Source: Minisyncoccota bacterium (GTDB taxonomy: Bacteria; Patescibacteriota; Minisyncoccia; Phycocordibacterales; UBA5272). Taken from it: a stretch of DNA of 64,000 nt. Below the pieces are notes generated by a model, which did not search any database, was not told the origin of the DNA, and saw nothing but the letters and a program-made list of their open reading frames with translations. Each line of letters opens with the position of its first letter. The stretch's first letter is position 1. Below, in pieces: positions 27,020 to 53,650 of the stretch. The translations under genes were made by a program, and so were the position numbers. The stretch is from NCBI GenBank assembly GCA_018063165.1, contig JAGOQU010000003.1, positions 19,268 to 83,267 of the forward strand, read 5' to 3'.

Positions 27020-28519
27020 ATGGCAGTAGAAAAAATCATCAAAGAATTAGAACAGAAGATACAAGATATTTCAACACAGGTTGAAATAAGTGAAATCGGT
27101 AATGTTATCTCTGTAAGTGATGGTATTGCTCGTGTGAGTGGTCTACTTTCTTGTGCTTCGATGGAGGAAGTTACTTTTGCTTCAGGTGCAAAAGGTATAG
27201 CACTTAACCTTGAATCTGACTTAGTTGGTATAGTTATTGTAAGTGGTGCTGACCTTGTTCGCGAAGGAGAGGAGGTGTCTCGCACAGGAAGAGTACTTTC
27301 TATTCCTGTAGGGGAATCGTTGCTAGGTCGTGTTGTTGATCCGCTTATGAATCCTCTTGATGGTGAAAAAATAAGTGGACTTACAGATACAGAACTCGTG
27401 GAAAAGATTGCTCCAGGTGTTATGGATCGTGAACCTGTAAATCAGCCAATGCAAACAGGTGTTAAGTCTATTGATGCCATGATTCCTGTTGGACGTGGAC
27501 AGCGTGAGCTTATTATCGGTGACCGACAAACAGGCAAAACAACAATCGCAATTGATACTATTATTAATCAAAAAGATTCTGGAGTTATTTGTGTATATGT
27601 TGCGATTGGTCAAAAAGAATCAAAAATTGCGCAAATTGTAAATAAATTACGTGATTCAGGTGCCATGGAGTATACCGTAGTTGTGCTTGCTGGAGCATCA
27701 CATTCTGCAGCGCTTTCATATTTAGCACCATATGCAGGTACTGCTGTTGCTGAGTATTTTATGAATAAAAGAAAAGATGTTCTTGTTGTATATGATGATC
27801 TTTCAAAACATGCTGTGGCATATCGTGAAATGTCACTTCTTCTTAAGCGTCCACCTGGACGTGAAGCGTATCCTGGAGATGTGTTTTACTTACACTCCCG
27901 TCTTCTTGAAAGATCATGTCGTCGTAATGTAAAAGCGGGAGGGGGGTCTATTACAGCGCTTCCAATTATCGAAACACAAGCAGGTGACGTATCTGCATAT
28001 ATTCCTACAAACGTTATTTCTATTACCGATGGTCAGATTTTTCTTGATGCCAATCTGTTTTATAAAGGTATGAGACCTGCTATTGATGTTGGGCTTTCTG
28101 TGTCACGTGTAGGTTCTTCTGCTCAAATAAAATCAATGAAGAAAAATGCCGGAAAAATGAAACTAGCTATGGCTCAATATCGTGAACTTGAATCATTTGC
28201 TCAATTTGATTCTGATCTTGATGTTGATACTAAAAGAACTATAGAAAGAGGAAAGCGTACAGCTGAAATGTTAAAACAGATAAACGGTAACCCGCTTCGT
28301 ACAGGACTTCAAGTTTCTTCTGTGTATGCTGTAAATAATGGTTTCCTTGATCATACTCCTGTGATGGATGTATTTGCTTGGGAAAAAGCAATGCATACTT
28401 ATATGGAATCAAGAGAAAAAGAGTTGCTTATTTCTATTGAAAAAGATTGGTCAGATGATATAGAAAAAAATCTTAAAGAAGCTCTTACTACATTTAGTAA
28501 ACTTCACAAAGAAGCTTAG
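27020..28519 (+). CDS. atpA: F0F1 ATP synthase subunit alpha
   Basis: Walker A GDRQTGKTTIAIDTI, and full-length alpha conservation. 499 aa. Confidence 0.95.
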   Translation: MAVEKIIKELEQKIQDISTQVEISEIGNVISVSDGIARVSGLLSCASMEEVTFASGAKGIALNLESDLVGIVIVSGADLVREGEEVSRTGRVLSIPVGESLLGRVVDPLMNPLDGEKISGLTDTELVEKIAPGVMDREPVNQPMQTGVKSIDAMIPVGRGQRELIIGDRQTGKTTIAIDTIINQKDSGVICVYVAIGQKESKIAQIVNKLRDSGAMEYTVVVLAGASHSAALSYLAPYAGTAVAEYFMNKRKDVLVVYDDLSKHAVAYREMSLLLKRPPGREAYPGDVFYLHSRLLERSCRRNVKAGGGSITALPIIETQAGDVSAYIPTNVISITDGQIFLDANLFYKGMRPAIDVGLSVSRVGSSAQIKSMKKNAGKMKLAMAQYRELESFAQFDSDLDVDTKRTIERGKRTAEMLKQINGNPLRTGLQVSSVYAVNNGFLDHTPVMDVFAWEKAMHTYMESREKELLISIEKDWSDDIEKNLKEALTTFSKLHKEA

Positions 28520-29402: not shown

Positions 29403-29457
29403 ATCCAGCAAATATTTAATTATCAACAACTACCAACTACCAACTATCAGCCATTAA

Positions 29458-30867
<1,410 letters not shown>

Positions 30868-30916
30868 TTGAATCTGATTTGTATCAACTAATCTCTAACA
30901 CTCATAACCTACCTCT

Positions 30917-31336
30917 ATGCTAAAACTAAAAGTAGTAACACCAGATAAAGTACTTGTTGATGAAATCGTTGACAATGTAAGTATTCCTACAACAACAGGT
31001 ATGGTTACTGTGCTTAATAAACATATTCCACTTGTGTCCACTATTAAAGCAGGGGAAATGACTATACGTAAAGGTGGTTCTGATATCGGTTACGCTGTGT
31101 ATAAAGGACTTGTTAATGTGCGTCTTCATACGAAAGGTTTAACAGAAGTGGTTGTACTTCTTGAAAAAGGTGAGTCAGTAGAAGAACTTGATCATGATAG
31201 AGCACAAGAGGCACTAGCTCGAGCAAAAGCTATGGCTGAAGAAAAAGAAGATGATGTAGATTTTGGAATATTTGAAGGTCTTGTGGAAAAGGAAGTTAAT
31301 CGTGTGAGAGTTGCAATGAAATATAGAAAGCATTAA
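30917..31336 (+). CDS. atpC: F0F1 ATP synthase subunit epsilon
   Basis: 139 aa beta-sandwich plus C-terminal helices. Operon end. Confidence 0.85.
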   Translation: MLKLKVVTPDKVLVDEIVDNVSIPTTTGMVTVLNKHIPLVSTIKAGEMTIRKGGSDIGYAVYKGLVNVRLHTKGLTEVVVLLEKGESVEELDHDRAQEALARAKAMAEEKEDDVDFGIFEGLVEKEVNRVRVAMKYRKH

Positions 31337-31369
31337 AATAAATTCTTTTTAATAGAAAAAACAAAAACA

Positions 31370-31400
31370 AAAGCGAAACCTTCGGTTTCGCTTTTGTTTT
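31370..31400 (+). terminator. rho-independent terminator of the atp operon
   Basis: agcgaaacc-ttcg-ggtttcgcttttgtttt. Confidence 0.7.
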
Positions 31401-31514
31401 ATTCAAGAAGATGTTGACGTACTGGTATTTTTTGTGCTGTTGTGATATACTTTGAACACTTTATTAAGCGTCTATTTTTATTAAAAAACGGCGCACATTT
31501 ATTTTTATTCGTAT

Positions 31515-33299
31515 ATGCAACAAGAAATTCGTAATATCGCTATTATCGCTCACGTGGACCATGGAAAGACTACACTTACAGACGCGCTTATGAAGCAGTG
31601 TGGTGTAGGTGTTGAAGGGCAAACTATGGACTCAAATCCAATGGAAAAAGAGCGTGGTATTACGATTACAGCGAAGAATACGTCTGTTCCATACAAGGGT
31701 GTAAAAATAAATATTCTCGATACTCCAGGTCACGCTGACTTCGGTTCAGAAGTTGAGCGTGTTCTTCGTTCTATTGACTGTGTGCTTCTTGTTGTCGATG
31801 CTCAGGAAGGTCCTATGCCTCAAACAAGATTTGTACTCAAGAAATCACTTGAGCTAGGTATTAAACCAATTGTTGTTATTAATAAAATCGATAAACCTGC
31901 TGCTGATCCTGACAAGGTACATGATGAGGTGTTTGAGCTTTTCATGGAGCTTGGTGCAAATGAAGAGCAACTCGACTTCACCACTGTCTACGCTATTGGA
32001 CGTCAAGGTGTTGCTATGAAAGCTATTGATGATGAGAAAAAAGATCTTACACCACTTCTTGATATTATTCTTGAAAAAGTTCCAAAAGCAACAGGAGATA
32101 TAAATAATCCTTTTAAGGCACAAGTATTTAATCTTGCGTATGACAATTTCCTTGGTCGTATGGCTATTTGTCGTGTGTATGATGGAATCGCAAAAGTTGG
32201 CGAAGAAATTACAGTAAAGAAAGCTACAGGAGAAACACGTAAAGGTAAAATTACAAAAATTTATACATTTAATGGTATAGAGCGTGTTGATGTGCAAACT
32301 GCTGAAGCAGGAGATATTGCAATGATTGCTGGATTCTCTGATATTTTCATTGGTGAGACTTTCGTTAAAAATGCTGATCAAGAACCAATGGAAGCAATAC
32401 ATATTGATGAGCCTACTATTGCTCTTAACTTCCTTGTTAATGATTCACCATTTGCAGGTAAAGAAGGAAAGTTTGTGACAGGTCGTCAAATTCGTGATCG
32501 TCTAGAAAAAGAACTCGAAATTAACGTTGGACTTCGTGTTGATTTTGATACAGAAAAGTATCTTGTATATGGTCGTGGAGAACTTCACATTGGTGTACTT
32601 CTTGAAACTATGCGTCGCGAAGGGTATGAACTTCAAGTGTCGCAACCACAAGTTATTTTCCATGAAAAAGATGGTGTTAAAGAAGAACCGTATGAAGATC
32701 TTGTTATTGATGTTCCTGTGGAATCTGCGGGTGTTGTTATGGAAAAGCTTGGACGTAGAAAAGCTATGATTACTGATATGTCTGAAAAGCACGGAGTTAA
32801 TCGTATTAAGGCAGAAATTCCTACTCGTGGTCTTCTTGGATATCGAGGAGAGTTTGTTATTGATACAAAAGGTCTCGGCATACTTTCTGCACGTTTTAGT
32901 AAATTTGGTCCATACGCAGGTGAAATCACTCGTCGTTTAGTTGGTTCTATGACATCAATGGCAACAGGTAAGTCTCTTGCGTTTTCACTTTGGAATCTTC
33001 AAGATCGTGGTGTTATTTATATTCTTCCTACAACAGAAGTATATGAAGGTATGGTTATTGGTAACACTTCAAAAGGCGAAGAAATGATGGTTAATCCTAC
33101 AAAAGGAAAACAGCTTTCTAACATGCGTTCATCTGGTGCTGACGAAGCTATTGTTCTTGTTCCTGCTTGGGAAATTAGTATTGAACGTGGTCTTGAAATT
33201 ATGAACGCAGATGAATATCTTGAAGTAACTCCAAAATCAGTAAGACTTCGTAAGCAGTTACTTACAGAGTCAGAACGTTCACGTGCAGGCAGAAAGTAA
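31515..33299 (+). CDS. typA: translational GTPase TypA/BipA
   Basis: IRNIAIIAHVDHGKTTL, DTPGHADF, NKIDK G-motifs, and TypA-specific C-terminal domains. 594 aa. Confidence 0.9.
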   Translation: MQQEIRNIAIIAHVDHGKTTLTDALMKQCGVGVEGQTMDSNPMEKERGITITAKNTSVPYKGVKINILDTPGHADFGSEVERVLRSIDCVLLVVDAQEGPMPQTRFVLKKSLELGIKPIVVINKIDKPAADPDKVHDEVFELFMELGANEEQLDFTTVYAIGRQGVAMKAIDDEKKDLTPLLDIILEKVPKATGDINNPFKAQVFNLAYDNFLGRMAICRVYDGIAKVGEEITVKKATGETRKGKITKIYTFNGIERVDVQTAEAGDIAMIAGFSDIFIGETFVKNADQEPMEAIHIDEPTIALNFLVNDSPFAGKEGKFVTGRQIRDRLEKELEINVGLRVDFDTEKYLVYGRGELHIGVLLETMRREGYELQVSQPQVIFHEKDGVKEEPYEDLVIDVPVESAGVVMEKLGRRKAMITDMSEKHGVNRIKAEIPTRGLLGYRGEFVIDTKGLGILSARFSKFGPYAGEITRRLVGSMTSMATGKSLAFSLWNLQDRGVIYILPTTEVYEGMVIGNTSKGEEMMVNPTKGKQLSNMRSSGADEAIVLVPAWEISIERGLEIMNADEYLEVTPKSVRLRKQLLTESERSRAGRK

Positions 33300-33350
33300 T
33301 ATTTTTTTGTTTATTTTCTTGTTTCGTTTATTCTGTGGAAATAGATAGCT

Positions 33351-33884
33351 ATGAAAAAAAATACAGATCATAAAAAACTACAACACCCTGTAGTTAAGAA
33401 AGCAAAAAGTAATATAGTGCTTTCGGGAATTATATTAGTGATATTCTTTTTTGTTGGTATGTATGGATATAGATGTCTTTCTGAAAAAGTCTGTGAAGTC
33501 GAAATGTTTAATAGATTTGTTCGTCAAGATGTAACAGTAATAACACCGAAAGGAGCAATTACTGCAGAGGTTGCTGACACAAAGAGTTCTCGAGAGCTTG
33601 GTCTTTCTGGTAGATCGCAAATGAATATAAACGAAGGTCTTTTGTTTGTGTTTGATGTGCCTGGAAAATATGGTTTTTGGATGAAAGACATGTTATACGC
33701 TCTAGATATTATATGGATAAATCAAAATGGTGTTGTTGTGGAAATAGAACGTAACGTAACACCTGAATCATATCCAAAAACTTTTATGAATAAATCTCCA
33801 GCTAGTTATGTTCTTGAGCTTAATGGAGGTGTTGCAGAAAAACAGGGGCTATATATTGGTTCAAAAATAAAGATAGTTGAGTAA
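33351..33884 (+). CDS. DUF192 (COG1430) family protein, N-terminally anchored
   Basis: ELGLSGRS...EGLLFVFD...GFWMKDM..LDIIWI pattern typical of DUF192. Confidence 0.65.
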   Translation: MKKNTDHKKLQHPVVKKAKSNIVLSGIILVIFFFVGMYGYRCLSEKVCEVEMFNRFVRQDVTVITPKGAITAEVADTKSSRELGLSGRSQMNINEGLLFVFDVPGKYGFWMKDMLYALDIIWINQNGVVVEIERNVTPESYPKTFMNKSPASYVLELNGGVAEKQGLYIGSKIKIVE

Positions 33885-34065
33885 AAGTTATAAATTGCAA
33901 ACCTGACTTGTTGTTAAGTTTTTCTTTTTAAGTTTCGGACTTGCTTATACGTACAGTTTAGTTGCGTATCCACTTTTTTAAACTATTCGAACCTTCATTA
34001 ATTTCTGACATTTATCATACAGTTGGTTATTTTTCAATTGATGTACGAATTTAGTTAGAAAGCAC

Positions 34066-34094
34066 TTGACAAATAAAAATGTGTGTGATATTAT
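34066..34094 (+). promoter_or_regulatory. strong sigma70-like promoter with extended -10 (TTGACA-17-TGaTATTAT)
   Basis: Seen directly: ttgaca aataaaaatgtgtgtga tattat. Precedes the RBS aggag (34112) and the small ORF, ~350 nt upstream of rnpB. Confidence 0.5.
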
Positions 34095-34124
34095 GTATTA
34101 GTAATTTTTTTAGGAGTTTCTTTT

Positions 34125-34367
34125 ATGTTTGCATTACGGATATCTGGTTACTGTTTTCTTTCAGCTCTTTTTTCAGGCTTCATTATGTGTTTTCTACTTC
34201 TTGTTGGATCCCTTTTCAATATTTTAGATCTACTGATTACACCAGCTACTTTCTGCAGGGGTGCCATGTTGTACCTTACTGGATTTGGTATTTTAATCAT
34301 TATGTTAGTAGCTTTATCTCAGTTAATAAAGACTACTATCACTGCGTCAAAGCATTTTTTTTGCTGA
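34125..34367 (+). CDS. small hydrophobic membrane protein (80 aa), hypothetical
   Basis: Canonical AGGAG SD 8 nt upstream of the ATG and a strong promoter upstream. Two TM helices. Could alternatively be a leader of the rnpB transcript. Confidence 0.3.
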   Translation: MFALRISGYCFLSALFSGFIMCFLLLVGSLFNILDLLITPATFCRGAMLYLTGFGILIIMLVALSQLIKTTITASKHFFC

Positions 34368-34439
34368 TCAAAAATTTGTTCGTTAAAGCCATTCAACTCG
34401 ATGTTGAGTGGCTTTTCTTGCATTTTTTACAATTTCATT

Positions 34440-34802
34440 GTATTGTTACAAAGTTCTATTGGGTAATCGCCCTTACGGCTTTAAATGTAGCTTATGAGGG
34501 AGGAAAGTCCGAACACATATCTATTACAATGTGATGGAGAGCGTAGCGGGTAACGCCCGTCGTGAGTAATCATAGAGGTGCGAGCAGTGACGCCAATGCC
34601 GAAAGGCTAGGATTCCTTCGGGAATATGCTTACCGAAAGGTAAGATTGAAACGGCTAAATCCTTACGTGTGTGCAAGACCGTGCTCGTAGCAATATGAGA
34701 GTGTCGCTAGAGCGTGATGGTAACATTACGCCCAGATACATGATTACACAGTGTCAGTAATGACACGGACAGAATTCGGCTTATAGGTAGAACAAAGATA
34801 AA
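34440..34802 (+). ncRNA. rnpB: RNase P RNA (bacterial type A-like)
   Basis: Conserved P4 strands GGAGGAAAGTCCGAAC (34497..) and ACAGAATTCGGCTTATAGG (34769..), and AGCGGGTAACGCCCGTCGTGAG (P10/11 region). A locally GC-rich non-coding block. Ends are approximate. Confidence 0.75.
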
Positions 34803-34858
34803 AGAGCGACCCTAAACTACCAGATTTACTTCTTGGAAGAAGGGTCGCTCTTTTCTTT
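34803..34858 (+). terminator. hairpin terminator after rnpB
   Basis: agagcgaccc ... gggtcgctct 10-bp stem with an internal sub-hairpin, followed by tttcttttg. Confidence 0.55.
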
Positions 34859-34878
34859 TGTTCACAACATATTTGCGT

Positions 34879-34887
34879 GGGGGGGGG
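34879..34887 (+). repeat. G9 homopolymeric tract in the promoter/5' region of surface-protein paralog 1 (candidate slipped-strand phase-variation switch)
   Basis: Seen directly: gcgt-ggggggggg-cgac, 12 nt upstream of a TATACT -10-like hexamer and 27 nt upstream of the ATG. It is the only such run in the window, and the genome is AT-rich. Confidence 0.6.
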
Positions 34888-34913
34888 CGACTAAATGCTA
34901 TACTATACTCATT

Positions 34914-37334
34914 ATGAAAAAATATTATCTATCAGCTCTTTTACTAAGTTTTGGTATTTCTTTAACAACAGTATCTGCTCAAGTAGTAGATACAGATACA
35001 TCAGATACTATATCTACATGTACAACAATAACTACTAATATTAGTTACAAGAATAGAAAGAACAATAACAAAGCTGACGTAATGAATCTTCAAGACTTTT
35101 TAAATAGTACTGGATATTTAAACTCTGACTCTATAACAGGATTCTTTGGAAGAGTTACAGAAAGTGCTGTAGCTAAGTTCCAGAAAGACAATGGACTAGT
35201 CGCTAATCCAGCTGGGTTTGTGGGGGCAGGGACACGAGCGAAGATAAAGATGATTTCGTGTAGTGGAAATACAGGTGTGAATACTGATAGTTCTAATGTA
35301 AATGTAAACACAAATACAACAGGTATTTCTCAGCTTACAAAAAATCAGGTATTGAATGGTTTTGATCAGTGTGGTACTCAATTCAAGAATGGTACAATTT
35401 CTATTGGTTATACCAAGTATACAGAATTAGAAAGAACATGTGAATCAGCAGCTGCAGACGTATCACTATTTTTAGATAGTATAATTTTTGCAGATTTAGA
35501 TAATGATAATGTTAATGAGGCACTTGTCACAATGAGATTAGTTCGGGCATCTAGTGGAGGAGGATTATATATTTTTAAGAATGTTAATGGTGTTGCTCGT
35601 GTTATTGACGGTGTAATTTTTGGTAAAGGAAATGGTAATATTGTTTCCGTTAATAAAAATATAATAGTTGTGGAAGTGGAGGATTTCATTAGGGGTGAAA
35701 ATGTTCCATATAAAGAAACTTACAAGTTTATTAATAATAAACTGGAAAAAGTATCTGGTGTTGCTATTGCAGAAGAATCTTCACTTAATAACTCTAATCT
35801 TCCAGAAGGGTGTAAAACAACATCAGGGTTTAGTCCTGTTACTGGGGTGAAGTGTTCAAGCGGACTACCTTTTGTTGTTTCTCAATCGGTGCCTGATGTT
35901 GTTTCTTCTGAGAATCAAATTAATAGTATTGAGACAAATAATTGGCAAAAGTTTTCAAAATATGGTTTTGAAATAAAGCGTCCAACGGAGCATATTATTG
36001 TTGCTGATCGAGAGACGGCTATGGGTTATAATTTTACATTTTCTGCTAATAGTCAAGCTAATAGATTGATAGTCGATGTACAAAATAAATCATGGGATAA
36101 AGGTATTGTAAAATCAGGTGCAAATTGTAATGAGTTTCTTGCTGGGGACAATGTTTCAGAGGTTAAAATTAATGGAATTAGTTTTGTTAAATCTGATGTA
36201 AGCAAAGATTTTAACACATCTAAAACTTCATATATGGCTACAGGATATTGTTATGTTAATAATGGTTTAGCGTATAAACTCAACAAAATAATTACTAAAA
36301 ATGATGTTGATTCAGAAGTATATAATAAGGTTTTTAATGCTATGATTTCATCTTTTGTTGTTTCTCAATCGGTATCTGACGATGTTTTTTCTGAAAATCA
36401 ATTAATGGAAAAATTAAAAAATAGTACATATACATTTTCTCCTATAGGAAAAGGTGAGGAAGGTTCTAATGATATTAAAGTAAATATGGTTGCAGGACAA
36501 TCAAAAGGAAGTGATGGTTGGTTTCGTAATGTGGTAAGTGTTGCCGTTGATAAAAAAACTAATAGAGCTATAGTTGCATTAGATATAACAGGAGGTGCTT
36601 CTTCGCGTTTGCCAGCGATTGTTTCATTTACAAATATTAATGATATCCCTGAACAAAAAGATTTTGTGTATCTTAATTATTATCGTGGAACTATTAAAAC
36701 AGTATCGTTTAATGATGCAGGAGAAGTGTTGGTTAAATTTTTAGAAAAAGATTTCACGTATCATTTAGATTCATTAGGTAAACTAATTCCAGTTAATGAA
36801 ACAAAAAATGATTCTAATATTGATTCTGTAATTAATACATGGAAGAATAGTGATGGTTTTGTGAAAGGGGAAAAGTACGATGGTGAACACCATGCAAGAT
36901 CTTTGGTAAATAAGTCAACATTTGGTAGTACTTATTTTGGAAAAACTGTTCCCTATGCAATCATGAATGAAAGTAGTCATGGTAATGTGGCGGGAGGTGT
37001 ATGGAAAGTAATAATACAACCTCAGCAAACTAATAATACAAGTGATTTTGTATATGAATTTAATAGAGTTCAAGGTTATAACCCTTGGAATATAGGTTCA
37101 GATATAACAATGAATGTTGCTCAAATTTCTCATGAGTTAGTAGCAGATGGTCAACTGCTTGTTACTTTTAGAGTGTCGAGTGATATCAATTTTTCTAATT
37201 CTTCTAATGCATGTATTAAATATGGAGATTATAAAGCTACTTTTACCTTAGATAAGGTAAAACATATGTATACACCTACAAGTAAAAAGGATGTACTTAT
37301 TGAAGCAGCTTGTCTTGCTCAAAATCGTGGTTAG
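34914..37334 (+). CDS. large secreted surface protein, paralog 1: signal peptide + N-terminal peptidoglycan-binding (PG_binding_1-like) domain + divergent middle + conserved C-terminal module
   Basis: MKKYYLSALLL signal. MNLQDFLNSTGYL...DGFFGRVTESAVAKFQKDNGL PG-binding pattern. Shares 100%-identical DNA blocks with paralog 2. The ORF track start 34833 lies inside the rnpB terminator, so M34914 is preferred. Confidence 0.8.
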   Translation: MKKYYLSALLLSFGISLTTVSAQVVDTDTSDTISTCTTITTNISYKNRKNNNKADVMNLQDFLNSTGYLNSDSITGFFGRVTESAVAKFQKDNGLVANPAGFVGAGTRAKIKMISCSGNTGVNTDSSNVNVNTNTTGISQLTKNQVLNGFDQCGTQFKNGTISIGYTKYTELERTCESAAADVSLFLDSIIFADLDNDNVNEALVTMRLVRASSGGGLYIFKNVNGVARVIDGVIFGKGNGNIVSVNKNIIVVEVEDFIRGENVPYKETYKFINNKLEKVSGVAIAEESSLNNSNLPEGCKTTSGFSPVTGVKCSSGLPFVVSQSVPDVVSSENQINSIETNNWQKFSKYGFEIKRPTEHIIVADRETAMGYNFTFSANSQANRLIVDVQNKSWDKGIVKSGANCNEFLAGDNVSEVKINGISFVKSDVSKDFNTSKTSYMATGYCYVNNGLAYKLNKIITKNDVDSEVYNKVFNAMISSFVVSQSVSDDVFSENQLMEKLKNSTYTFSPIGKGEEGSNDIKVNMVAGQSKGSDGWFRNVVSVAVDKKTNRAIVALDITGGASSRLPAIVSFTNINDIPEQKDFVYLNYYRGTIKTVSFNDAGEVLVKFLEKDFTYHLDSLGKLIPVNETKNDSNIDSVINTWKNSDGFVKGEKYDGEHHARSLVNKSTFGSTYFGKTVPYAIMNESSHGNVAGGVWKVIIQPQQTNNTSDFVYEFNRVQGYNPWNIGSDITMNVAQISHELVADGQLLVTFRVSSDINFSNSSNACIKYGDYKATFTLDKVKHMYTPTSKKDVLIEAACLAQNRG
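34971..35316 (+). repeat. 346-bp block 100% identical to 37642..37987 (PG-binding domain coding region of both paralogs)
   Basis: Direct alignment by eye over the whole block, with no mismatches found. The flanking signal-peptide and downstream regions diverge. Confidence 0.85.
35794..35909 (+). repeat. ~116-bp block ~98% identical to 38852..38967 (NLPEGCKTTSGFSP..FVVSQSVPDVVSS module)
   Basis: Direct comparison shows 2 mismatches. Confidence 0.75.
36805..36962 (+). repeat. ~158-bp block ~90% identical to 39509..39666 (start of the conserved C-terminal module NDSNIDSVINTW.NSDGFVKGEKYDGE)
   Basis: Direct comparison. Protein-level similarity continues to the C-terminus. Confidence 0.7.
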
Positions 37335-37361
37335 GTTTTATAGTTTTTAATTTCGAAGTAG

Positions 37362-37394
37362 AAAAACGATTCCGTATGGAATCGTTTTTGTTTT
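37362..37394 (+). terminator. rho-independent terminator after paralog 1
   Basis: gaaaaacgattccgta-t-ggaatcgtttttgtttt. An identical sequence (one loop nt different) follows paralog 2. Confidence 0.7.
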
Positions 37395-37590
37395 AGTCTT
37401 ACATCCATCTACTCTACTTCTTTTATTACTCCATGCAATATTTAGTTTATTATAGGGGTAGCTGCTGCAGAATTTTAATATATTTTGTATTTGTAATATA
37501 AAATATTTTGTAGCAAATTAATAAAAGTTTATTTTTTTGTAGGTATCTTCTTTGCAACGAGAAGTTACTAAATGTTACACTATTCTCATT

Positions 37591-40038
37591 ATGAAAAAAT
37601 ATTATCTATCAGCTCTTTTACTCACTCTTTCATTATCATATGTATCTGCTCAAGTAGTAGATACAGATACATCAGATACTATATCTACATGTACAACAAT
37701 AACTACTAATATTAGTTACAAGAATAGAAAGAACAATAACAAAGCTGACGTAATGAATCTTCAAGACTTTTTAAATAGTACTGGATATTTAAACTCTGAC
37801 TCTATAACAGGATTCTTTGGAAGAGTTACAGAAAGTGCTGTAGCTAAGTTCCAGAAAGACAATGGACTAGTCGCTAATCCAGCTGGGTTTGTGGGGGCAG
37901 GGACACGAGCGAAGATAAAGATGATTTCGTGTAGTGGAAATACAGGTGTGAATACTGATAGTTCTAATGTAAATGTAAACACAAATATTTTAAAAGCAGA
38001 AAGTTGGAAGACATATACGAACAAAGAAAAAGGATATCAAATTAAATATCCATTTAATGCGAAGCTTACTGTAAGTAATTTATCTTGTCTTCAGATTGAT
38101 ACAGTAGAATTTGGTTCTGTGTATATTAACAGTGAGTCAGGTGATCCTTGTGGTACTCCAACAGGTGTTAGTAATTCTAGTAGTAATGTCACTTCTACTT
38201 TGTTTATTGATAGTAAAGAATATAATTTTTCTGGACGTCAAAATTATAACAATGCTTATAGTTTTTTTGCTGGTAATATAAGCGATAAACTTTCGTTGGT
38301 CTATGGTGTTGAACATAGAAATTCATCTAGTCTTAACCCTGAAGAACTAGGTTCTTTAACAGAAACTGAATATCAAAAAGCTTTAGATTCTGCAAAAAAA
38401 GTTCTTTCGACTTTTAAGATTTTACCAAATATATATATAAATGATACAGTTTGGAAAAAATATAAGAACGAAAATCGTAACTTTGTGATTTCGTACCCGA
38501 GTGATGTAGAGGTACAAGAAGTTTATAGACAGGATACGATTGCTTGTTTTAATAAAAAAAGTGAATCATGTTTTGTTTATATAGCTGATGATACTTCTGC
38601 TGTAAACAGAGTAAATAATGTGTCTGTTTTTAATGAATTAAATATTGCTACATTAGAAAATAAATTACATACAAAAATTATCGCAGAAGTTAATAACGAA
38701 GGACGTTATTCTGTGTCAATGAATAAAATTGTTATTTCTAGTAAAGACAAACTTATTTTAAGTAGAATGCTTTCTTCCATTGAATTTACTGGTATTAATG
38801 AAGGGATAAGTAAAGGCTCATCATCTTCAATAGTTGATATATTTAATAATCCTAATCTTCCAGAAGGGTGTAAAACAACATCAGGGTTTAGTCCTATTAC
38901 TGGGGTGAAGTGTTCAAGCGGACTACCTTTTGTTGTTTCTCAATCGGTGCCCGATGTTGTTTCTTCTAAAAATCAATTAATTGATAAAATTAAAAATGCT
39001 ACGTACTACTTTAATCTTCCTAATGGAAAAGATGAAGGTTCTAAAAGTATAACACCACTTAAAATGATTAATGGGGAAGCTAAGTTTTCTCTTTCTAATG
39101 GTTATAGTGCTATTTGTTATTTTTTAAATGGTGGCCCTCATTTTGCTGTAAATAAAAATGGAGATAAAGTTGCTGTAGCTGTTTCTTGTAGCCATGGTGG
39201 ATCTACTATAGATAATTTTTTAATTGCATTTAAAAATATAAATAACACATTAATCCAGACCGATATTGCTAATTTATTAGAATATCCATCTACAAAAATT
39301 AAAAATTCACTTAGAATTAGTGTAGAAAATATTGATTTAAGTAATGATAACATCGTTTCTGTTGCTACATTAGTAGTCCCAGAATCATCGTATAGTCTTC
39401 CTCAGTATAAACAAGATGCCACAGAATCATTTGTTGTGAAATATCAATTAAATAGCTCTGGTAAGCTTTTGATTTTGCCAACTTTGTCTACAGCACTGTC
39501 TTCATTACAAAATGATTCTAATATTGATTCTGTAATTAATACATGGATGAATAGTGATGGTTTTGTGAAAGGGGAAAAGTACGACGGTGAACGTCACACA
39601 AGATCTTTGATAAATAAGTCAACATTTAAAAGTACATATTTTGGAAAAATTGTTCCTTATGCAATTGTGGGTGAAGAAAGTATTGGTGAGGCCATGGGGG
39701 GATATTCTGAATTCATTGTTCATCCTCAAATAAATAGCAAAATAAGTAATTTTGTTTATGAATTCAATCGTGTAGAAGGTTTTAATCCTTGGGGGGTAGG
39801 TTCTGAAACTGGCAATTCTCCAGAAAAAGTTTCTTATGAATTAGTTGCAGATGATCAACTTCTTGTTATTTATAGGGTATCGCGTGATTTTATGCATCCT
39901 GATTCTTCTAAACAGTGTGTAAAACGAGGAGATTACAAAGCTACATATCTTTTAAATAAAACAGAACATATGTATGTTTCCTCAAGCAAGAAAGATTTTC
40001 TTTACTCAAGTGATTGTGAACACCCTAGTAACGGTTAG
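37591..40038 (+). CDS. large secreted surface protein, paralog 2 (same N-terminal PG-binding domain and C-terminal module as paralog 1, different central region)
   Basis: Same signal peptide and PG-binding domain. Shared NLPEGCKTTSGFSPITGVKCSSGLPFVVSQSVPDVVSS and C-terminal KGEKYDGERHTRS...NFVYEFNRVEGFNPW...GDYKATY modules. Confidence 0.8.
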   Translation: MKKYYLSALLLTLSLSYVSAQVVDTDTSDTISTCTTITTNISYKNRKNNNKADVMNLQDFLNSTGYLNSDSITGFFGRVTESAVAKFQKDNGLVANPAGFVGAGTRAKIKMISCSGNTGVNTDSSNVNVNTNILKAESWKTYTNKEKGYQIKYPFNAKLTVSNLSCLQIDTVEFGSVYINSESGDPCGTPTGVSNSSSNVTSTLFIDSKEYNFSGRQNYNNAYSFFAGNISDKLSLVYGVEHRNSSSLNPEELGSLTETEYQKALDSAKKVLSTFKILPNIYINDTVWKKYKNENRNFVISYPSDVEVQEVYRQDTIACFNKKSESCFVYIADDTSAVNRVNNVSVFNELNIATLENKLHTKIIAEVNNEGRYSVSMNKIVISSKDKLILSRMLSSIEFTGINEGISKGSSSSIVDIFNNPNLPEGCKTTSGFSPITGVKCSSGLPFVVSQSVPDVVSSKNQLIDKIKNATYYFNLPNGKDEGSKSITPLKMINGEAKFSLSNGYSAICYFLNGGPHFAVNKNGDKVAVAVSCSHGGSTIDNFLIAFKNINNTLIQTDIANLLEYPSTKIKNSLRISVENIDLSNDNIVSVATLVVPESSYSLPQYKQDATESFVVKYQLNSSGKLLILPTLSTALSSLQNDSNIDSVINTWMNSDGFVKGEKYDGERHTRSLINKSTFKSTYFGKIVPYAIVGEESIGEAMGGYSEFIVHPQINSKISNFVYEFNRVEGFNPWGVGSETGNSPEKVSYELVADDQLLVIYRVSRDFMHPDSSKQCVKRGDYKATYLLNKTEHMYVSSSKKDFLYSSDCEHPSNG

Positions 40039-40064
40039 TTTTTCTAGATTTTAATATGTGTGTA

Positions 40065-40099
40065 GAAAAACGATTCCGTAAGGAATCGTTTTTTGTTTT
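40065..40099 (+). terminator. rho-independent terminator after paralog 2
   Basis: gaaaaacgattccgta-a-ggaatcgttttttgtttt. Confidence 0.7.
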
Positions 40100-40153
40100 A
40101 ATATTACATTGTCTATTCTCCTTCTTTCACTTTCCTGATATTATAAGGAGACT

Positions 40154-41428
40154 ATGATTCTTAAAAATTCGGCACTCCTTGCGATATTTAGCATGCTTTC
40201 AGTGCTTCTTGGTATTGTGCGTGACAGATTACTCGCGACACATGTAGGTGTTGGTCCAATTCTTGATATATACAATGCTTCATTTCGTCTTCCTGACTTT
40301 TTGTATGCAATGTCACTTGCCTTTGTAACAGCAGGAACCGTTGTGCCATTTCTAACTATTGAAAATAAGTCAGGAAATATTATTGACTCTCGTCATAAAT
40401 TTTCCTCGATTTCACTTTTCTTTGCAGGATTCGCTTCGCTTACTGGTCTTATTATCGCTATTACTATACCGCTCTATGCACGCTTTATTGTGCCTGGTTT
40501 TACTGAAGACCAACTCACTGTATTTATTAGTGTGACACGTCTTCTTATGCTTCAGCCGATACTTCTTGGTATCACGTCTCTTATTTCTTGTTTTGCACAA
40601 ATGAAAAATCATTTTGTGCTCTATGGTATTGCACCACTTGGATACTCTCTAGGTATTATAGGTGGTATTGTATTTTTATATCCACCTTATGGTGTTCATG
40701 GACTTATCTATGGAGTACTTATCGGTGCTTTTGTATCTTTTTTGATTCAACTCTATTCTCTTCGTGGAACAAGAATGATAGATGTTTTTCCTTATTTTTC
40801 GTTTAAGCATATTAAAGAATTATTTTCTCTTGCATATCCACGTACTGGGGTTAATATTCTGACACAACTTCGTACTATTTTCTTTACAGCATTTGCAACA
40901 ACACTTGGTCCTGGAATATTGTCGGCATATCTTTTTGCACAGAGAATTACAGATGCGGTAACACAAGTTATACAACAAAGTGTAACCACAGCGAGTCTGC
41001 CTGTACTTTCAAAAGAATTTGTTGAACATAAAATAGATACATATAAACATGTCGTTAAAAAATATGTACTTACTCTCGGTGCAATTGGTTTTTTTGCATC
41101 GTCCGCTATTTATTTTTTGAAAGATGTTGTTATTACTGTTTTGTACGGAAACACAAGTGCACATTCTTTGATATCATTTTTCTTAGTTGGTTTTCTTATT
41201 GTGCTTCCATTTCATATGATGACGGGATTCTTTTCTATTAGTCTTTATTCTGCAAAAGATACCAAAAGTGTTTTTTATTCTAATTTTGTTTCTACTGTAG
41301 TTGCTGTACTTGCTTGTTATGTAACACAACATATGGGAAATATTAGTCTTTTGTATGGTGTTATTGCTATGTCTCTTTCAAATTTTGTTGTTATTTCATT
41401 TTTATATAGTAGAAAAAAGTTATTGTAA
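40154..41428 (+). CDS. murJ: MurJ/MviN-family lipid II flippase-like membrane protein (short form)
   Basis: N-terminal LAIFSMLSVLLGIVRDRLLATHVGVGPILDIYNASFRLPDFLY parallels the MurJ N-terminus (SRVLGFARD...FG.G...DAF..AF.LPNLL). 12+ TM helices. Confidence 0.6.
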   Translation: MILKNSALLAIFSMLSVLLGIVRDRLLATHVGVGPILDIYNASFRLPDFLYAMSLAFVTAGTVVPFLTIENKSGNIIDSRHKFSSISLFFAGFASLTGLIIAITIPLYARFIVPGFTEDQLTVFISVTRLLMLQPILLGITSLISCFAQMKNHFVLYGIAPLGYSLGIIGGIVFLYPPYGVHGLIYGVLIGAFVSFLIQLYSLRGTRMIDVFPYFSFKHIKELFSLAYPRTGVNILTQLRTIFFTAFATTLGPGILSAYLFAQRITDAVTQVIQQSVTTASLPVLSKEFVEHKIDTYKHVVKKYVLTLGAIGFFASSAIYFLKDVVITVLYGNTSAHSLISFFLVGFLIVLPFHMMTGFFSISLYSAKDTKSVFYSNFVSTVVAVLACYVTQHMGNISLLYGVIAMSLSNFVVISFLYSRKKLL

Positions 41429-41552
41429 AAGAATTTTTTGAATTTAAGTAGAAATTTAGATTTTCTTCTTTTGAAAACTTTTAAGAGTAAGTAATTAGAA
41501 AACCATGATTCCCTTTATATTTTAGTCATTTTCGTGTAGTATAGAAGGATAT

Positions 41553-43355
41553 ATGGAAATTAGAAATTTCTCAATTATTGCTCATATTGATCACGGAAAG
41601 TCGACTCTAGCAGACCGTCTTCTTGAAGTTACTTCAACGGTAGACAAGCGTCACATGAAAGAACAGGTTCTTGACTCAATGGAACTTGAACGTGAACGAG
41701 GTATTACTATAAAAATGACTCCTGTTCGTATGAACTGGAAAAGTAAGGATGGAAAAGAATATGTTCTTAATCTAATTGATACGCCGGGGCATATAGATTT
41801 TTCTTATGAAGTGTCTCGCGCACTTCAGGCTGTAGAAGGTACACTTCTTCTTGTTGACTCAACACAGGGTGTGCAAGCACAAACACTTACAACTCTTGAA
41901 ATGGCAAAGAATTCTCATCTTACTATCATTCCAGTAATGACAAAGATTGATAGTCCTATTGCGAGACCAGATGATGTACGAGAAGAAATAGTTGAACTTC
42001 TTGGTTGTGATTTTGAAGATATTTTATCTGTTTCAGGAAAGACAGGTGAGGGTGTAGAAAATCTCCTTGAAGAAATTGTTAAAAAAGTTCCAAAGCCAAC
42101 AAGTGAATTTGGTGATAATACGTTCAATCAATCTCGTTCTCTTATTTTTGATTTTGAATATAGTAATCACATGGGGGTTATTCTGTATGTAAGAGTTCTA
42201 GACGGACATGTAAAGGCAGGGGATACACTACTCTTTACTCAATCGAATCATAAATTTATTATTCGTGAAGTTGGAACATTTACTCCTGGGAAAAAAGAAT
42301 GTAAAGGTATTGGTGCTGGAGAGATTGGATACATTGTGACTGGTATCAAAGAGCCAGGTATTGCTCGTGTTGGAGATACAGTAACAACACACAATAAGCC
42401 ACTTCCTGCATTTCCTGGATATGCTGAACCCGTGCCAATTGTTTTTGCATCGGTGTATCCTGAATCACAAGACGAATTCGACGATCTTCGTTCTTCGCTT
42501 TTTAAACTTAAACTATCGGACTCGTCTCTTACCTTTGAAGAAGAATCGTCCGGCGCTCTTGGACGCGGATTCCGTTGTGGGTTTCTTGGTATGCTCCACA
42601 TGGAAATCATTACAGAGAGATTAAGAAGAGAGTTCGATCAAGAATTAGTTGTTACAACACCATCTATTACGTATGAAGTAACTTTAAAAAATGGAGATGT
42701 GGAAATGGTATATACACCTATACATTTTCCTGATCATGGACAATATACGTCAGTGCGTGAGCCGTGGATATTATTGACCATCATAACGCCTCATGACTAT
42801 GTGAGCCCACTTATGCAACTTTTTCCTCCACATGAGGCTACAGTGGCAGATTTGGCCGACTGGGGGCATGATAGAGTCAGGATCAAGCTAGCTATGCCAC
42901 TTAGAGAGCTTATGCGTAACTTTTTCAATGAAGTTAAGTCTGCGTCATCTGGATACGCTTCTATTGTCTATGAACCTCTTGAAATGCGTCCGGCAGATGT
43001 AACAAGACTTGATGTATATGTTGCAGAAGAGCGTGTTACTGCTTTTTCTCGTGTAATACCAGAATATCGCGACCGAGAAGAATCAGAAGAAGTTGTGGAA
43101 AAGCTCGAAAAGATATTACCAACAGAAATGTTTCGTGTGAAGATACAAGCATATGTGCGTGGACGTATTATTGCTTCTCGTTCTATCGCTCCTATGAAAA
43201 AAGATGTGACAGGGTATATGTATGGAGGAGATATCACTCGTAAAATGAAGCTTCGCGAAAAGCAAAAGCGTGGAAAAGATAGAATGGAAAGAGAAGGAAA
43301 GGTGCATATATCACATGATACATTCTTAAAGATGATGAAACCTAATGAGAAGTAG
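41553..43355 (+). CDS. lepA: elongation factor 4 (LepA)
   Basis: IRNFSIIAHIDHGKSTLADRLL, DTPGHIDF, TKID G-motifs, and LepA C-terminal domain. 600 aa. Confidence 0.9.
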   Translation: MEIRNFSIIAHIDHGKSTLADRLLEVTSTVDKRHMKEQVLDSMELERERGITIKMTPVRMNWKSKDGKEYVLNLIDTPGHIDFSYEVSRALQAVEGTLLLVDSTQGVQAQTLTTLEMAKNSHLTIIPVMTKIDSPIARPDDVREEIVELLGCDFEDILSVSGKTGEGVENLLEEIVKKVPKPTSEFGDNTFNQSRSLIFDFEYSNHMGVILYVRVLDGHVKAGDTLLFTQSNHKFIIREVGTFTPGKKECKGIGAGEIGYIVTGIKEPGIARVGDTVTTHNKPLPAFPGYAEPVPIVFASVYPESQDEFDDLRSSLFKLKLSDSSLTFEEESSGALGRGFRCGFLGMLHMEIITERLRREFDQELVVTTPSITYEVTLKNGDVEMVYTPIHFPDHGQYTSVREPWILLTIITPHDYVSPLMQLFPPHEATVADLADWGHDRVRIKLAMPLRELMRNFFNEVKSASSGYASIVYEPLEMRPADVTRLDVYVAEERVTAFSRVIPEYRDREESEEVVEKLEKILPTEMFRVKIQAYVRGRIIASRSIAPMKKDVTGYMYGGDITRKMKLREKQKRGKDRMEREGKVHISHDTFLKMMKPNEK

Positions 43356-43392
43356 TTTTTGTTTCTCTTGTATAGATTGATATACTTAGAGT

Positions 43393-43956
43393 ATGAAACA
43401 AGAAAAATATATATTATGGGGGTCTATAGCTATCTTGATTATAAGTAGTGTTCTTTTTGTTGTTGTAGATGGTCCAAAAAAGACAAAAGAAGAAACTTCT
43501 CATACCTCAGTAAAAAAAGAAATATCGTTAGATACAGAAAATACTAAGAATGCAACTTCTAGTACAGGAGGATTAGGAACGACAACACCACAAGAACCTG
43601 ATGCAAGGTTCAATACAAAACTTTGGTCTGCGACATATACAAATAATACATATGGTTTTACGCTAGTTTTTCCAGATTCTTGGTCTAGTTATACAGCAAA
43701 AGAAATTGATAACGGTGTACAATTTGGTGTAGAAGGTCAAGAAGATGTTTTCACTATCGTTGCTTATACGAACAAAGAATGGGAAGAAAAAATACAGGAA
43801 AATAAAAGAGCTGGAACAGGAGAATTGCCTGGTGTCTTAAAAAAGAATGATGCGTATGTGTTTACTGTAAAAAGAGCAAGTACTTTTTCGGAAAAAGTGC
43901 TCACTGTTATTAATGTTTACCCTTCAATTCTTACAACATTTACGTTTAGAAAATAA
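43393..43956 (+). CDS. hypothetical N-terminally anchored secreted protein
   Basis: TM anchor, then a Ser/Thr-rich linker and a soluble domain. Confidence 0.45.
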   Translation: MKQEKYILWGSIAILIISSVLFVVVDGPKKTKEETSHTSVKKEISLDTENTKNATSSTGGLGTTTPQEPDARFNTKLWSATYTNNTYGFTLVFPDSWSSYTAKEIDNGVQFGVEGQEDVFTIVAYTNKEWEEKIQENKRAGTGELPGVLKKNDAYVFTVKRASTFSEKVLTVINVYPSILTTFTFRK

Positions 43957-43974
43957 GTAAGTTTTGTATAAAGA

Positions 43975-44008
43975 AAAAGCGATGACGTGTACTCATGTCA
44001 TCGCTTTA
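43975..44008 (+). terminator. hairpin terminator
   Basis: aaaagcgatgac-gtgtactcat-gtcatcgcttt. Confidence 0.5.
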
Positions 44009-44191
44009 GTTCTTTCTGAAATTACCCAATAAAAGCTACCAGTGAAAAACCGAGCATTCCAATGATAGAAACAACTGCGATCACTTTCCAGATAGTAAGT
44101 ATTATTTTTCTGTTTTTTGCTGCAAAAATCATATGTTTATTTAAATACTCTTAGATGAGTATGTTATTATAGATACAATAGTAGCAATTTT

Positions 44192-44584
44192 ATGCGAGAA
44201 TATCAACAAAAACATTTACTAAGAACTCTCTTTTATTCAAGGGTAACTATTGTTATTTTATTTTTACTTATTATTGTTCTTCTTAGATCTATTATGGAGC
44301 TTAATGATAAGCGTATAGAAGTTTCAAAACTAGCAGAAGAAGCAAATATTGAGAAACAAAAAATGGTTGCAAAAGTAGAAAAGGCTCAGATACAAAGTGA
44401 TGAAATAGCAACACAAAGAGGGTTTGAGTCATATGTAAGAACAACGTATCCTGTTGTTAAGAATGGGGAAGGTGTTATAGTTGTGTATGATGAAAATACG
44501 AGTTCGGTAAGTCAGGTGAGAGCTGATATGAATATCTGGGAGAAATTTGTTGTTATTTGGAGAAATATAACAAAAAAAGAATAA
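44192..44584 (+). CDS. FtsB/DivIC-like septum formation initiator family protein (putative)
   Basis: N-terminal TM, coiled coil, and C-terminal ...RGFESYVRTTYPVVKNGEGVIVV resembling the DivIC/FtsB C-terminal motif. Confidence 0.4.
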   Translation: MREYQQKHLLRTLFYSRVTIVILFLLIIVLLRSIMELNDKRIEVSKLAEEANIEKQKMVAKVEKAQIQSDEIATQRGFESYVRTTYPVVKNGEGVIVVYDENTSSVSQVRADMNIWEKFVVIWRNITKKE

Positions 44585-53472: not shown

Positions 53473-53592
53473 ATGGCAGTAAAAAAAGTTGCTAAGAAAG
53501 CAGTAAAGAAAGTAGCCAAGAAAGCAGTCAAGAAAGTGGCTGTTAAGAAGGTTGCTAAGAAAGCTGTGAAGAAGGTTGCAAAGCGCGCATAG
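53473..53592 (+). CDS. 39-aa lysine/alanine-repeat basic peptide (MAVKKVAKKAVKKVAKKAVKKVAVKKVAKKAVKKVAKRA), histone H1-like/Hc1-like tail-type
   Basis: Clean ORF with TATAAT 16 nt upstream and a hairpin terminator (53613..53650) directly downstream. A (KKVAKKAV)n repeat. Too short for the ORF track. Confidence 0.45.
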   Translation: MAVKKVAKKAVKKVAKKAVKKVAVKKVAKKAVKKVAKRA

Positions 53593-53612: not shown

Positions 53613-53650
53613 AATAAATCACCCACTCCCATGGGTGATTTATTTTTTTA
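53613..53650 (+). terminator. hairpin terminator/attenuator between the K-rich peptide gene and the HMA-membrane gene
   Basis: aaatcacccac-tcccatg-ggtgatttattttttt. Confidence 0.6.

Follow-up and report, generated by a model that had tools for sequence, protein, structure and literature searches.

A nine-guanine tract in the core promoter of one of two tandem surface-protein genes, a candidate expression rheostat in the Candidate Phyla Radiation

Within a 64,000-nucleotide (nt) stretch of DNA from a Minisyncoccota bacterium (assembly GCA_018063165.1, contig JAGOQU010000003.1; hereafter, the window), two genes for predicted peptidoglycan-binding surface proteins stand in tandem, paralog 1 and paralog 2, in a locus bounded by rnpB, the gene for RNase P RNA, and murJ. 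An uninterrupted run of nine G residues (G9) lies inside the core promoter of paralog 1, as that promoter is defined by the genome's own −10 consensus. We tentatively propose that this tract is a slippage-driven promoter rheostat of paralog 1. An incidental tract without regulatory consequence is, in our assessment, nearly as likely.

Direct reading confirmed nine consecutive G residues at 34879–34887 on the + strand. The −10 hexamer TATACT starts at 34899, with 11 nt between it and the tract, and the ATG occupies 34914–34916, at an offset of 27; these distances agree with the first-pass annotation of this DNA, which had put forward the tract as a phase-variation switch. Its claim that such runs are otherwise absent was likewise borne out by a homopolymer census of the 64 kb: G9 is the sole G/C run longer than six, and the remaining runs comprise 15 of G5, three of G6 (at 27941, 39696 and 39791, all inside open reading frames (ORFs)) and one of C5. 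The window has a G+C content of 33%. The expected number of runs of at least nine G residues is 0.018 for independent and identically distributed (iid) bases and 0.009 under a first-order Markov model, compared with one observed; matches to G8 averaged 0.08 over 100 dinucleotide-preserving shuffles, and the observed count of two was reached in 1 of the 100. Given that the counts of G5 and G6 agree with base composition, only G9 is a true outlier. Besides being over-represented relative to base composition, the tract exceeds the length of about 7–8 G/C residues needed for slipping. The same G9 is read in contig JAGONQ010000002.1 of the separately deposited assembly GCA_017992935.1 (contig L004, 37.7 kb), which spans positions 30154–44346 of the window with a single mismatch (44220) in 14,193 bases.

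The strong terminator of rnpB precedes both the tract and the gene, so paralog 1 requires a promoter of its own. We surveyed the 60 nt upstream of each long ORF in the window, taking TAnAnT hexamers 5–11 nt before the ORF-opening ATG. About 24 gene starts carry TATACT (T24 A24 t19 A24 C16 T24) 6–10 nt before the ATG, and the extended −10 TG is common among these gene-proximal promoters (T at −3 in 16 of the 24, G at −2 in 15 of the 24). Shine–Dalgarno-like sequences are rare upstream of the window's long ORFs. Together, the short distance from TGnTATACT to the ATG and the scarcity of Shine–Dalgarno sequences indicate a genome that mainly uses extended −10 promoters with leaderless or near-leaderless transcripts. 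Gene starts with TGnTATACT can be seen, for example, at 1885, 3944, 5201, 8801, 17803, 24030, 43381 and 47085.

Paralog 1 follows this pattern. Its extended −10, TGcTATACT (34896–34904, +), stands 9 nt before the ATG, lacks a Shine–Dalgarno sequence and matches the 24-promoter consensus, which implies a putative mRNA that is leaderless or has a leader of 2–3 nt. The G9 homopolymer (34879–34887, +) covers positions −20 to −12, counted from where the −10 hexamer starts, within the sequence gcgtGGGGGGGGGcgactaaaTGcTATACTatactcattATG, and 15 of the 22 nt preceding the −10 are G or C, compared with 0–9 in the other 24 promoters. Directly upstream of the tract is a −35-like hexamer, TTGCGT (34873–34878, +), the counterpart of TTGCAA in paralog 2 and 20 nt from the −10. 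The spacing between TTGCGT and TATACT equals the tract length plus 11, and is thus 20 nt for G9, 18 nt for G7 and 17 nt for G6. A second upstream element, TTCACA (34861–34866, +), 32 nt from TATACT, aligns with the TTGACA of two related loci described below; it is probably what remains of the −35 of the family's ancestor, and is too distant from any −10 to act.

Other readings of these nucleotides were considered and rejected. A second, overlapping TATACT (34904–34909) lies 4 nt from the ATG, beyond the observed range of 6–10 nt for a −10. A sigma-54-type reading of TTGC fails, as the upstream GG element is missing. The tract could be taken for a Shine–Dalgarno sequence of the out-of-frame ATG at 34895, for which its spacing of 7 nt is suitable, but the resulting ORF is a 47-amino-acid (aa) peptide rich in Y, N and S, and the sequence upstream of the tract offers no promoter for it.

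The tandem neighbour offers an internal comparison. Paralog 2 (ATG at 37591) has no tract, as the first-pass annotation had stated; its promoter (37552–37581, +) consists of TTGCAA, an 18-nt tract-free spacer, TGtTACACT and 9 nt to the ATG. The two promoters are homologous from tNTTTGC through the ATG, with aacgagaagtt (11 nt) in paralog 2 at the place of gtgggggggggcg (13 nt) in paralog 1. Gapless repeat detection sets the left edge of the duplicated unit (repeat family D6) at 34890 and 37567, 2 nt past the tract.

Loci from related genomes extend this comparison. A Logan contig from a related species (L008) is syntenic with the window, carrying rnpB, a terminator, a promoter, a gene whose product begins MKKYYLSAF... 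and murJ; its promoter reads TTGACA-18-TAGAAT-tgacacat-ATG, and it has gcgtAAAAGGGGG in place of the window's gcgtGGGGGGGGG, that is, A4G5 versus G9. In a more distant family member (L010), the promoter reads TTGACA-17-TACAAT-tgacacat-ATG without a G run. Contig L009, the only relative retrieved by a genome-contig scan with the 3′ end of rnpB, carries rnpB and murJ without the surface-protein gene and without a G run, and the distant family members L006 and L007 have no long G run. A protein-guided scan of genome contigs for further orthologous promoters returned none, as did a scan of metagenome contigs with a profile of the N-terminal region and a search of viral contigs; a protein-database search with the same profile found distant relatives only. 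With A4G5 in L008 and no G run in L010, the shorter length or absence of the tract in relatives points to a lineage-specific expansion of a purine-rich spacer rather than to a conserved element.

Guanine or cytosine runs of at least eight residues slip at high rates, and in the spacer or beside the −35 they modulate transcription. Under the proposed mechanism, G9 would act as a slippage-prone homopolymer within the paralog 1 core promoter; the organism, a Paceibacteria bacterium, belongs to the Candidate Phyla Radiation (CPR), and paralog 1 and its tandem neighbour both encode predicted surface proteins anchored in the cell wall. The extended −10 TGcTATACT would start the paralog 1 mRNA at the ATG or within about 3 nt of it, for leaderless translation. 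Slipped-strand mispairing at replication would add or remove G residues and so change the length of the spacer, and each change would alter how TTGCGT and the A/T-rich tail of the rnpB terminator are aligned with the −10, bringing them into or out of register. Since promoters with an extended −10 can dispense with a −35, graded, rheostat-like expression would be expected rather than strict ON/OFF switching. Given that the G9 spacing is 2–3 nt longer than that of paralog 2 and of the family promoters, G9 would represent a state of reduced expression and G6–G7 a high one. The tract-free paralog 2 would be expressed constitutively. We infer the hypermutability of the tract, the transcription start and the length dependence of expression from the arrangement of these elements. 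The product class (secreted, peptidoglycan binding, modular and, it seems, in concerted evolution with its neighbour) is, by analogy, one that contingency loci typically target. The contingency-locus reading of the first-pass annotation is sustained in part, by the promoter position of the tract, its rarity, the class of the gene, the contrast between the paralogs and the genome's own −10 consensus. With extended −10 promoters whose −35 zone holds no more than 0.5 bit per position, the clean ON/OFF switch through −35/−10 spacing that it had envisaged is less certain than in Neisseria.

Several observations weigh against the rheostat. Across the 24 promoters, the weak −35 zone shows a faint TTnnAA at 17-nt spacing, and a weak −35 combined with a perfect extended −10 may render transcription insensitive to the tract. 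When tract-length variants were scored against the 24-promoter matrix, G4–G6 were favoured in the −35 zone, in a crude profile too noisy to carry weight. The tract is conserved neither in the L008 ortholog nor in paralog 2. Its length is G9 in both assemblies of the strain, with no length variation seen; L004 is nearly clonal with the window strain (1 single-nucleotide polymorphism (SNP) per 14 kb) and thus tells little about switching. Finally, there is no other G/C run of at least seven residues in the window or in the roughly 35 kb of related loci fetched.

As to further alleles, a scan of JGI metagenomes for the tract flanks, allowing any tract length of 3–18, gave no match. Other contigs of the same species (L001–L003, reached through neighbour-gene look-ups) stop at window positions 34014–34569, short of the tract. 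The species is also contained in sequencing runs SRR11088367 and SRR11088409. Exact-protein look-ups with paralog 1 (as 806 aa and as 833 aa) and with paralog 2 were empty; L004 came through a neighbour-gene look-up. Neither mutS nor mutL was found among the 16 window ORFs, a minority of the total, that were scanned against Pfam.

The strongest competitor of the rheostat, and a plausible one, is that the tract is incidental: a purine-rich spacer would have slipped to G9 in a tolerant intergenic site, the extended −10 alone would set expression, and the tract, even if its length varies, would have no regulatory or adaptive role. The nearly uninformative −35 region of the 24 promoters and the perfect TGnTATACT of paralog 1 are consistent with this explanation, as is the absence of conservation in the ortholog, in another family member and in paralog 2. 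So are the finding of a single such tract in 64 kb, at the same length in two assemblies, and a chance expectation of about 0.3 G9/C9 runs per 1 Mb (extrapolated from the iid rate), which is not negligible given slippage. An incidental origin sits less well with the placement of the tract, because a chance landing in the core promoter of about 40 nt of one of few surface-protein genes is unlikely. Moreover, at 33% G+C, a pure run of nine G residues should be broken by mutation if it neither arose recently nor is under selection, and the TTGC hexamer that is homologous between the paralogs is displaced by exactly the 2–3 nt that would matter.

We consider it improbable that the tract is a cis element of fixed length, be it the site of a regulator or a stiff spacer, rich in G+C, that would hold promoter strength at a low constitutive level and shield paralog 1 from the heavy transcription of rnpB. 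Such an element could explain why L008 is also G-rich (GGG...GGGGG) between the rnpB terminator and the −10, and why the tract has an identical length in two assemblies. However, the window contains no partner motif, palindrome or second copy; in L009, rnpB occurs without a following G run, and the homologous genes in L010 and paralog 2 run without one; and a homopolymer makes a poor specific binding site.

An artefact, either poly-G from two-colour sequencing chemistry or a chimeric join, is very unlikely. The source is a metagenome-assembled genome (MAG), in which homopolymer length can be miscalled, but dark-cycle poly-G artefacts are normally much longer than nine residues. Both flanks of the tract are collinear with L008 (rnpB, terminator, promoter, gene and murJ), which excludes a chimeric join. 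Furthermore, L004 differs in contig structure (37.7 kb versus 83.8 kb) and yet has the same G9 with 1 SNP in 14 kb, which contradicts the assembly artefact that the first-pass annotation had named as a refuting case. Least credible of all is a translational switch, the first-pass annotation's alternative, in which tract length would shift the frame of an extension from 34833 and so add or remove 27 N-terminal residues: an ORF is indeed open and in frame from 34833 via the tract to the ATG at 34914, but the supposed ATG at 34833 is a TTG in the loop region of the rnpB terminator hairpin, the stretch from the terminator to the tract contains no promoter, an extended N-terminus would leave the signal peptide internal, the orthologs and the NCBI annotation begin MKKYYLSA, and the −10 consensus lies downstream of the tract.

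The gene behind the promoter, paralog 1 (34914–37334, +), encodes 806 aa comprising a Sec-type signal peptide (MKKYYLSALLLSFGISLTTVSA/Q), a PG_binding_1 domain at aa 53–110 (PF01471, E 1.3e-11) and then a mosaic of variable modules. The signal peptide and PF01471 match uphold the earlier description of the tract as preceding a gene for a secreted, peptidoglycan-binding protein, and the product is predicted to be surface exposed. The protein is present in two NCBI MAGs (MBP6948484.1 and MBP9866917.1), and its NCBI annotation as 806 aa places the start at the ATG at 34914. Modules of roughly 150 aa make up its mosaic-like variable part, and about 70 other proteins carry them singly. At least three such modules (approximately aa 133–280, 330–485 and 630–806) can be discerned in aa 130–806 (35301–37331); elsewhere, small proteins of some 200 aa contain each of them by itself, and in paralog 1 a Cys-containing linker, NLPEGCKTTSGFSPVTGVKCSSG, joins them. 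The variable region has no Pfam or PDB match, a search of solved structures was empty, and an AlphaFold2 model of the protein was poor (mean predicted local distance difference test score (pLDDT) of 37.9).

Paralog 2 (37591–40038, +; 815 aa) has the same N-terminal module, including a PF01471 match, and a different middle; it is 100% identical to P0001, an NCBI protein of a Candidatus Pacebacteria MAG with the annotation peptidoglycan-binding protein. A block of 346 nt is 100% identical between the genes (34971–35316 and 37642–37987, +). Outside the block, identity ranges from 0 to 75%; the C-terminal thirds are 44% identical and the middles unrelated. This pattern suggests that the N-terminal anchor module has been subject to gene conversion or concerted evolution. 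The two genes are also followed by homologous terminators (37329–37394 and 40033–40098).

On the other side of the promoter, rnpB (34451–34799, +) encodes an RNase P RNA of bacterial class A in a reduced form. In a cmscan search, its match to RF00010 spans model positions 1–367 and scores 97.7 bits (E 1.4e-30), with several peripheral helices absent. This score is 2.3 bits below the Rfam gathering score of 100, which is why a default scan overlooked the gene. We assigned the class on the basis of a full-length covariance-model match together with conserved GAGGAAAGUCCG and ACAGAAnnCGGCUUA cores; the match is full length, and the cores GAGGAAAGUCCG and ACAGAAUUCGGCUUA are both found in the RNA. 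The last 65 nt at its 3′ end are identical in L008 and L009, both from other Paceibacteria-like contigs. Its intrinsic terminator (34800–34859, +) has a 14-bp stem (34800–34813/34841–34854) followed by a T-rich tail; the region 34790–34920 folds with −44.9 kcal/mol (z = −8.3), and L008 and L009 have simpler hairpins at the same place. The G9 tract starts 24 nt past the stem and 20 nt past the T-rich tail, and hence lies outside the RNA gene. The tail might serve the downstream promoter as an UP-like A/T element. Overlapping the 5′ side of rnpB is a 151-aa ORF (34079–34534, +), rich in F, Y, C and W, which is called as a gene in public collections (L002 and L004). As it crosses a terminator (34385–34415) and enters rnpB by 84 nt, it is probably spurious, and the likely real gene there is a hydrophobic ORF of 80 aa (34125–34367, +) with aGGAG 8 nt upstream.

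Elsewhere in the window, metagenome contig L001 (2405–2715; GCA_020054605.1) matches the window at 100% identity as far as 34014, just past the DUF192 gene, and then diverges completely, which points either to a chimeric contig or to structural variation between strains. The gene content between DUF192 and murJ also differs in L009 and at the locus of the syntenic ortholog P0003 (TraX, GIY-YIG), carried by a contig of ERZ1426853, so that the interval seems to be variable. Six imperfect copies of a heptamer, CAACTAY, at 29427–29468 (+) directly precede the ATG (29473) of an ATP synthase beta-like gene. Tandem repeats of 12/24 nt, GCAGTAAAGAAAGTAGCTAAGAAA, in about 2.8 copies at 53476–53583 (+), occupy a stretch that is locally richer in G+C, just upstream of an ORF at 53631, and may code for a repeat rich in lysine and alanine.

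It is possible, though doubtful, that the locus is the first simple-sequence contingency locus in the CPR, with a poly-G rheostat stochastically tuning one member of a tandem, gene-converting pair of modular proteins that are anchored to peptidoglycan at the surface of a putatively episymbiotic Paceibacteria cell. Our literature searches found no report of phase variation by simple sequence repeats in Patescibacteria or the CPR. These bacteria, with their tiny genomes and small number of regulators, are believed to live attached to host cells. Were a modular protein anchored in the cell wall controlled by a hypermutable promoter tract, surface heterogeneity could arise simply and without regulators: clonal cells would differ in a protein for host attachment or phage reception, with no trans-acting factor involved. 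Such a mechanism is classical, and the gain would be its extension to a new and poorly understood lineage rather than a new principle. Independently of the tract, extended −10, near-leaderless promoters matter for the calling of gene starts in such MAGs.

In Neisseria meningitidis, porA (poly-G) and opc and fetA (poly-C) carry homopolymers in the −35/−10 spacer, the length of which sets the spacing and thereby transcription. The locus described here resembles these genes in having an uninterrupted G/C run (about 9–14 nt in Neisseria) that separates the −35 from the −10 upstream of a gene for a surface protein. It differs in that the Neisseria promoters need a recognisable −35, whereas here the promoter is of the extended −10, near-leaderless type with a weak −35, and in that variation and its effects on expression are documented in Neisseria, whereas for this locus they are predicted. 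Promoter homopolymers also switch families of tandem variable surface-protein genes, namely the poly-A of Mycoplasma hyorhinis vlp and the poly-C of Bordetella fim. Shared with these are tandem surface-protein genes with conserved N-terminal and promoter modules, and a small genome with host dependence. Unlike vlp, in which each paralog has its own tract, only paralog 1 has one here.

Campylobacter jejuni provides a comparison at the level of the genome. Its genome is also low in G+C, and its rare G/C runs of at least seven residues mark phase-variable genes for surface structures (PMC4965091, PMC3025981); strain NCTC11168 is reported to have 29 such G/C-tract loci (PMC4965091), about one per 57 kb. 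One G/C tract of at least seven in the present 64 kb is a similar density. Most C. jejuni tracts lie in reading frames and act by frameshift, in contrast to G9, which is intergenic and would act, if at all, on transcription.

A further comparison is the adhesin gene sabA of Helicobacter pylori, in which a promoter-proximal T-tract serves as a homopolymer rheostat in an AT-rich genome with few regulators (PMC4081817). The sabA output is graded, as tract length alters how the core promoter lines up with UP-like A/T elements further upstream (PMC4081817). There the tract consists of T residues upstream of the −35, and its action has been demonstrated experimentally, whereas the tract described here is a poly-G in the spacer whose role we infer. 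In both cases a homopolymer stands beside the −35 zone, and the T-rich terminator tail upstream of G9 is consistent with an alignment of the UP-like kind.

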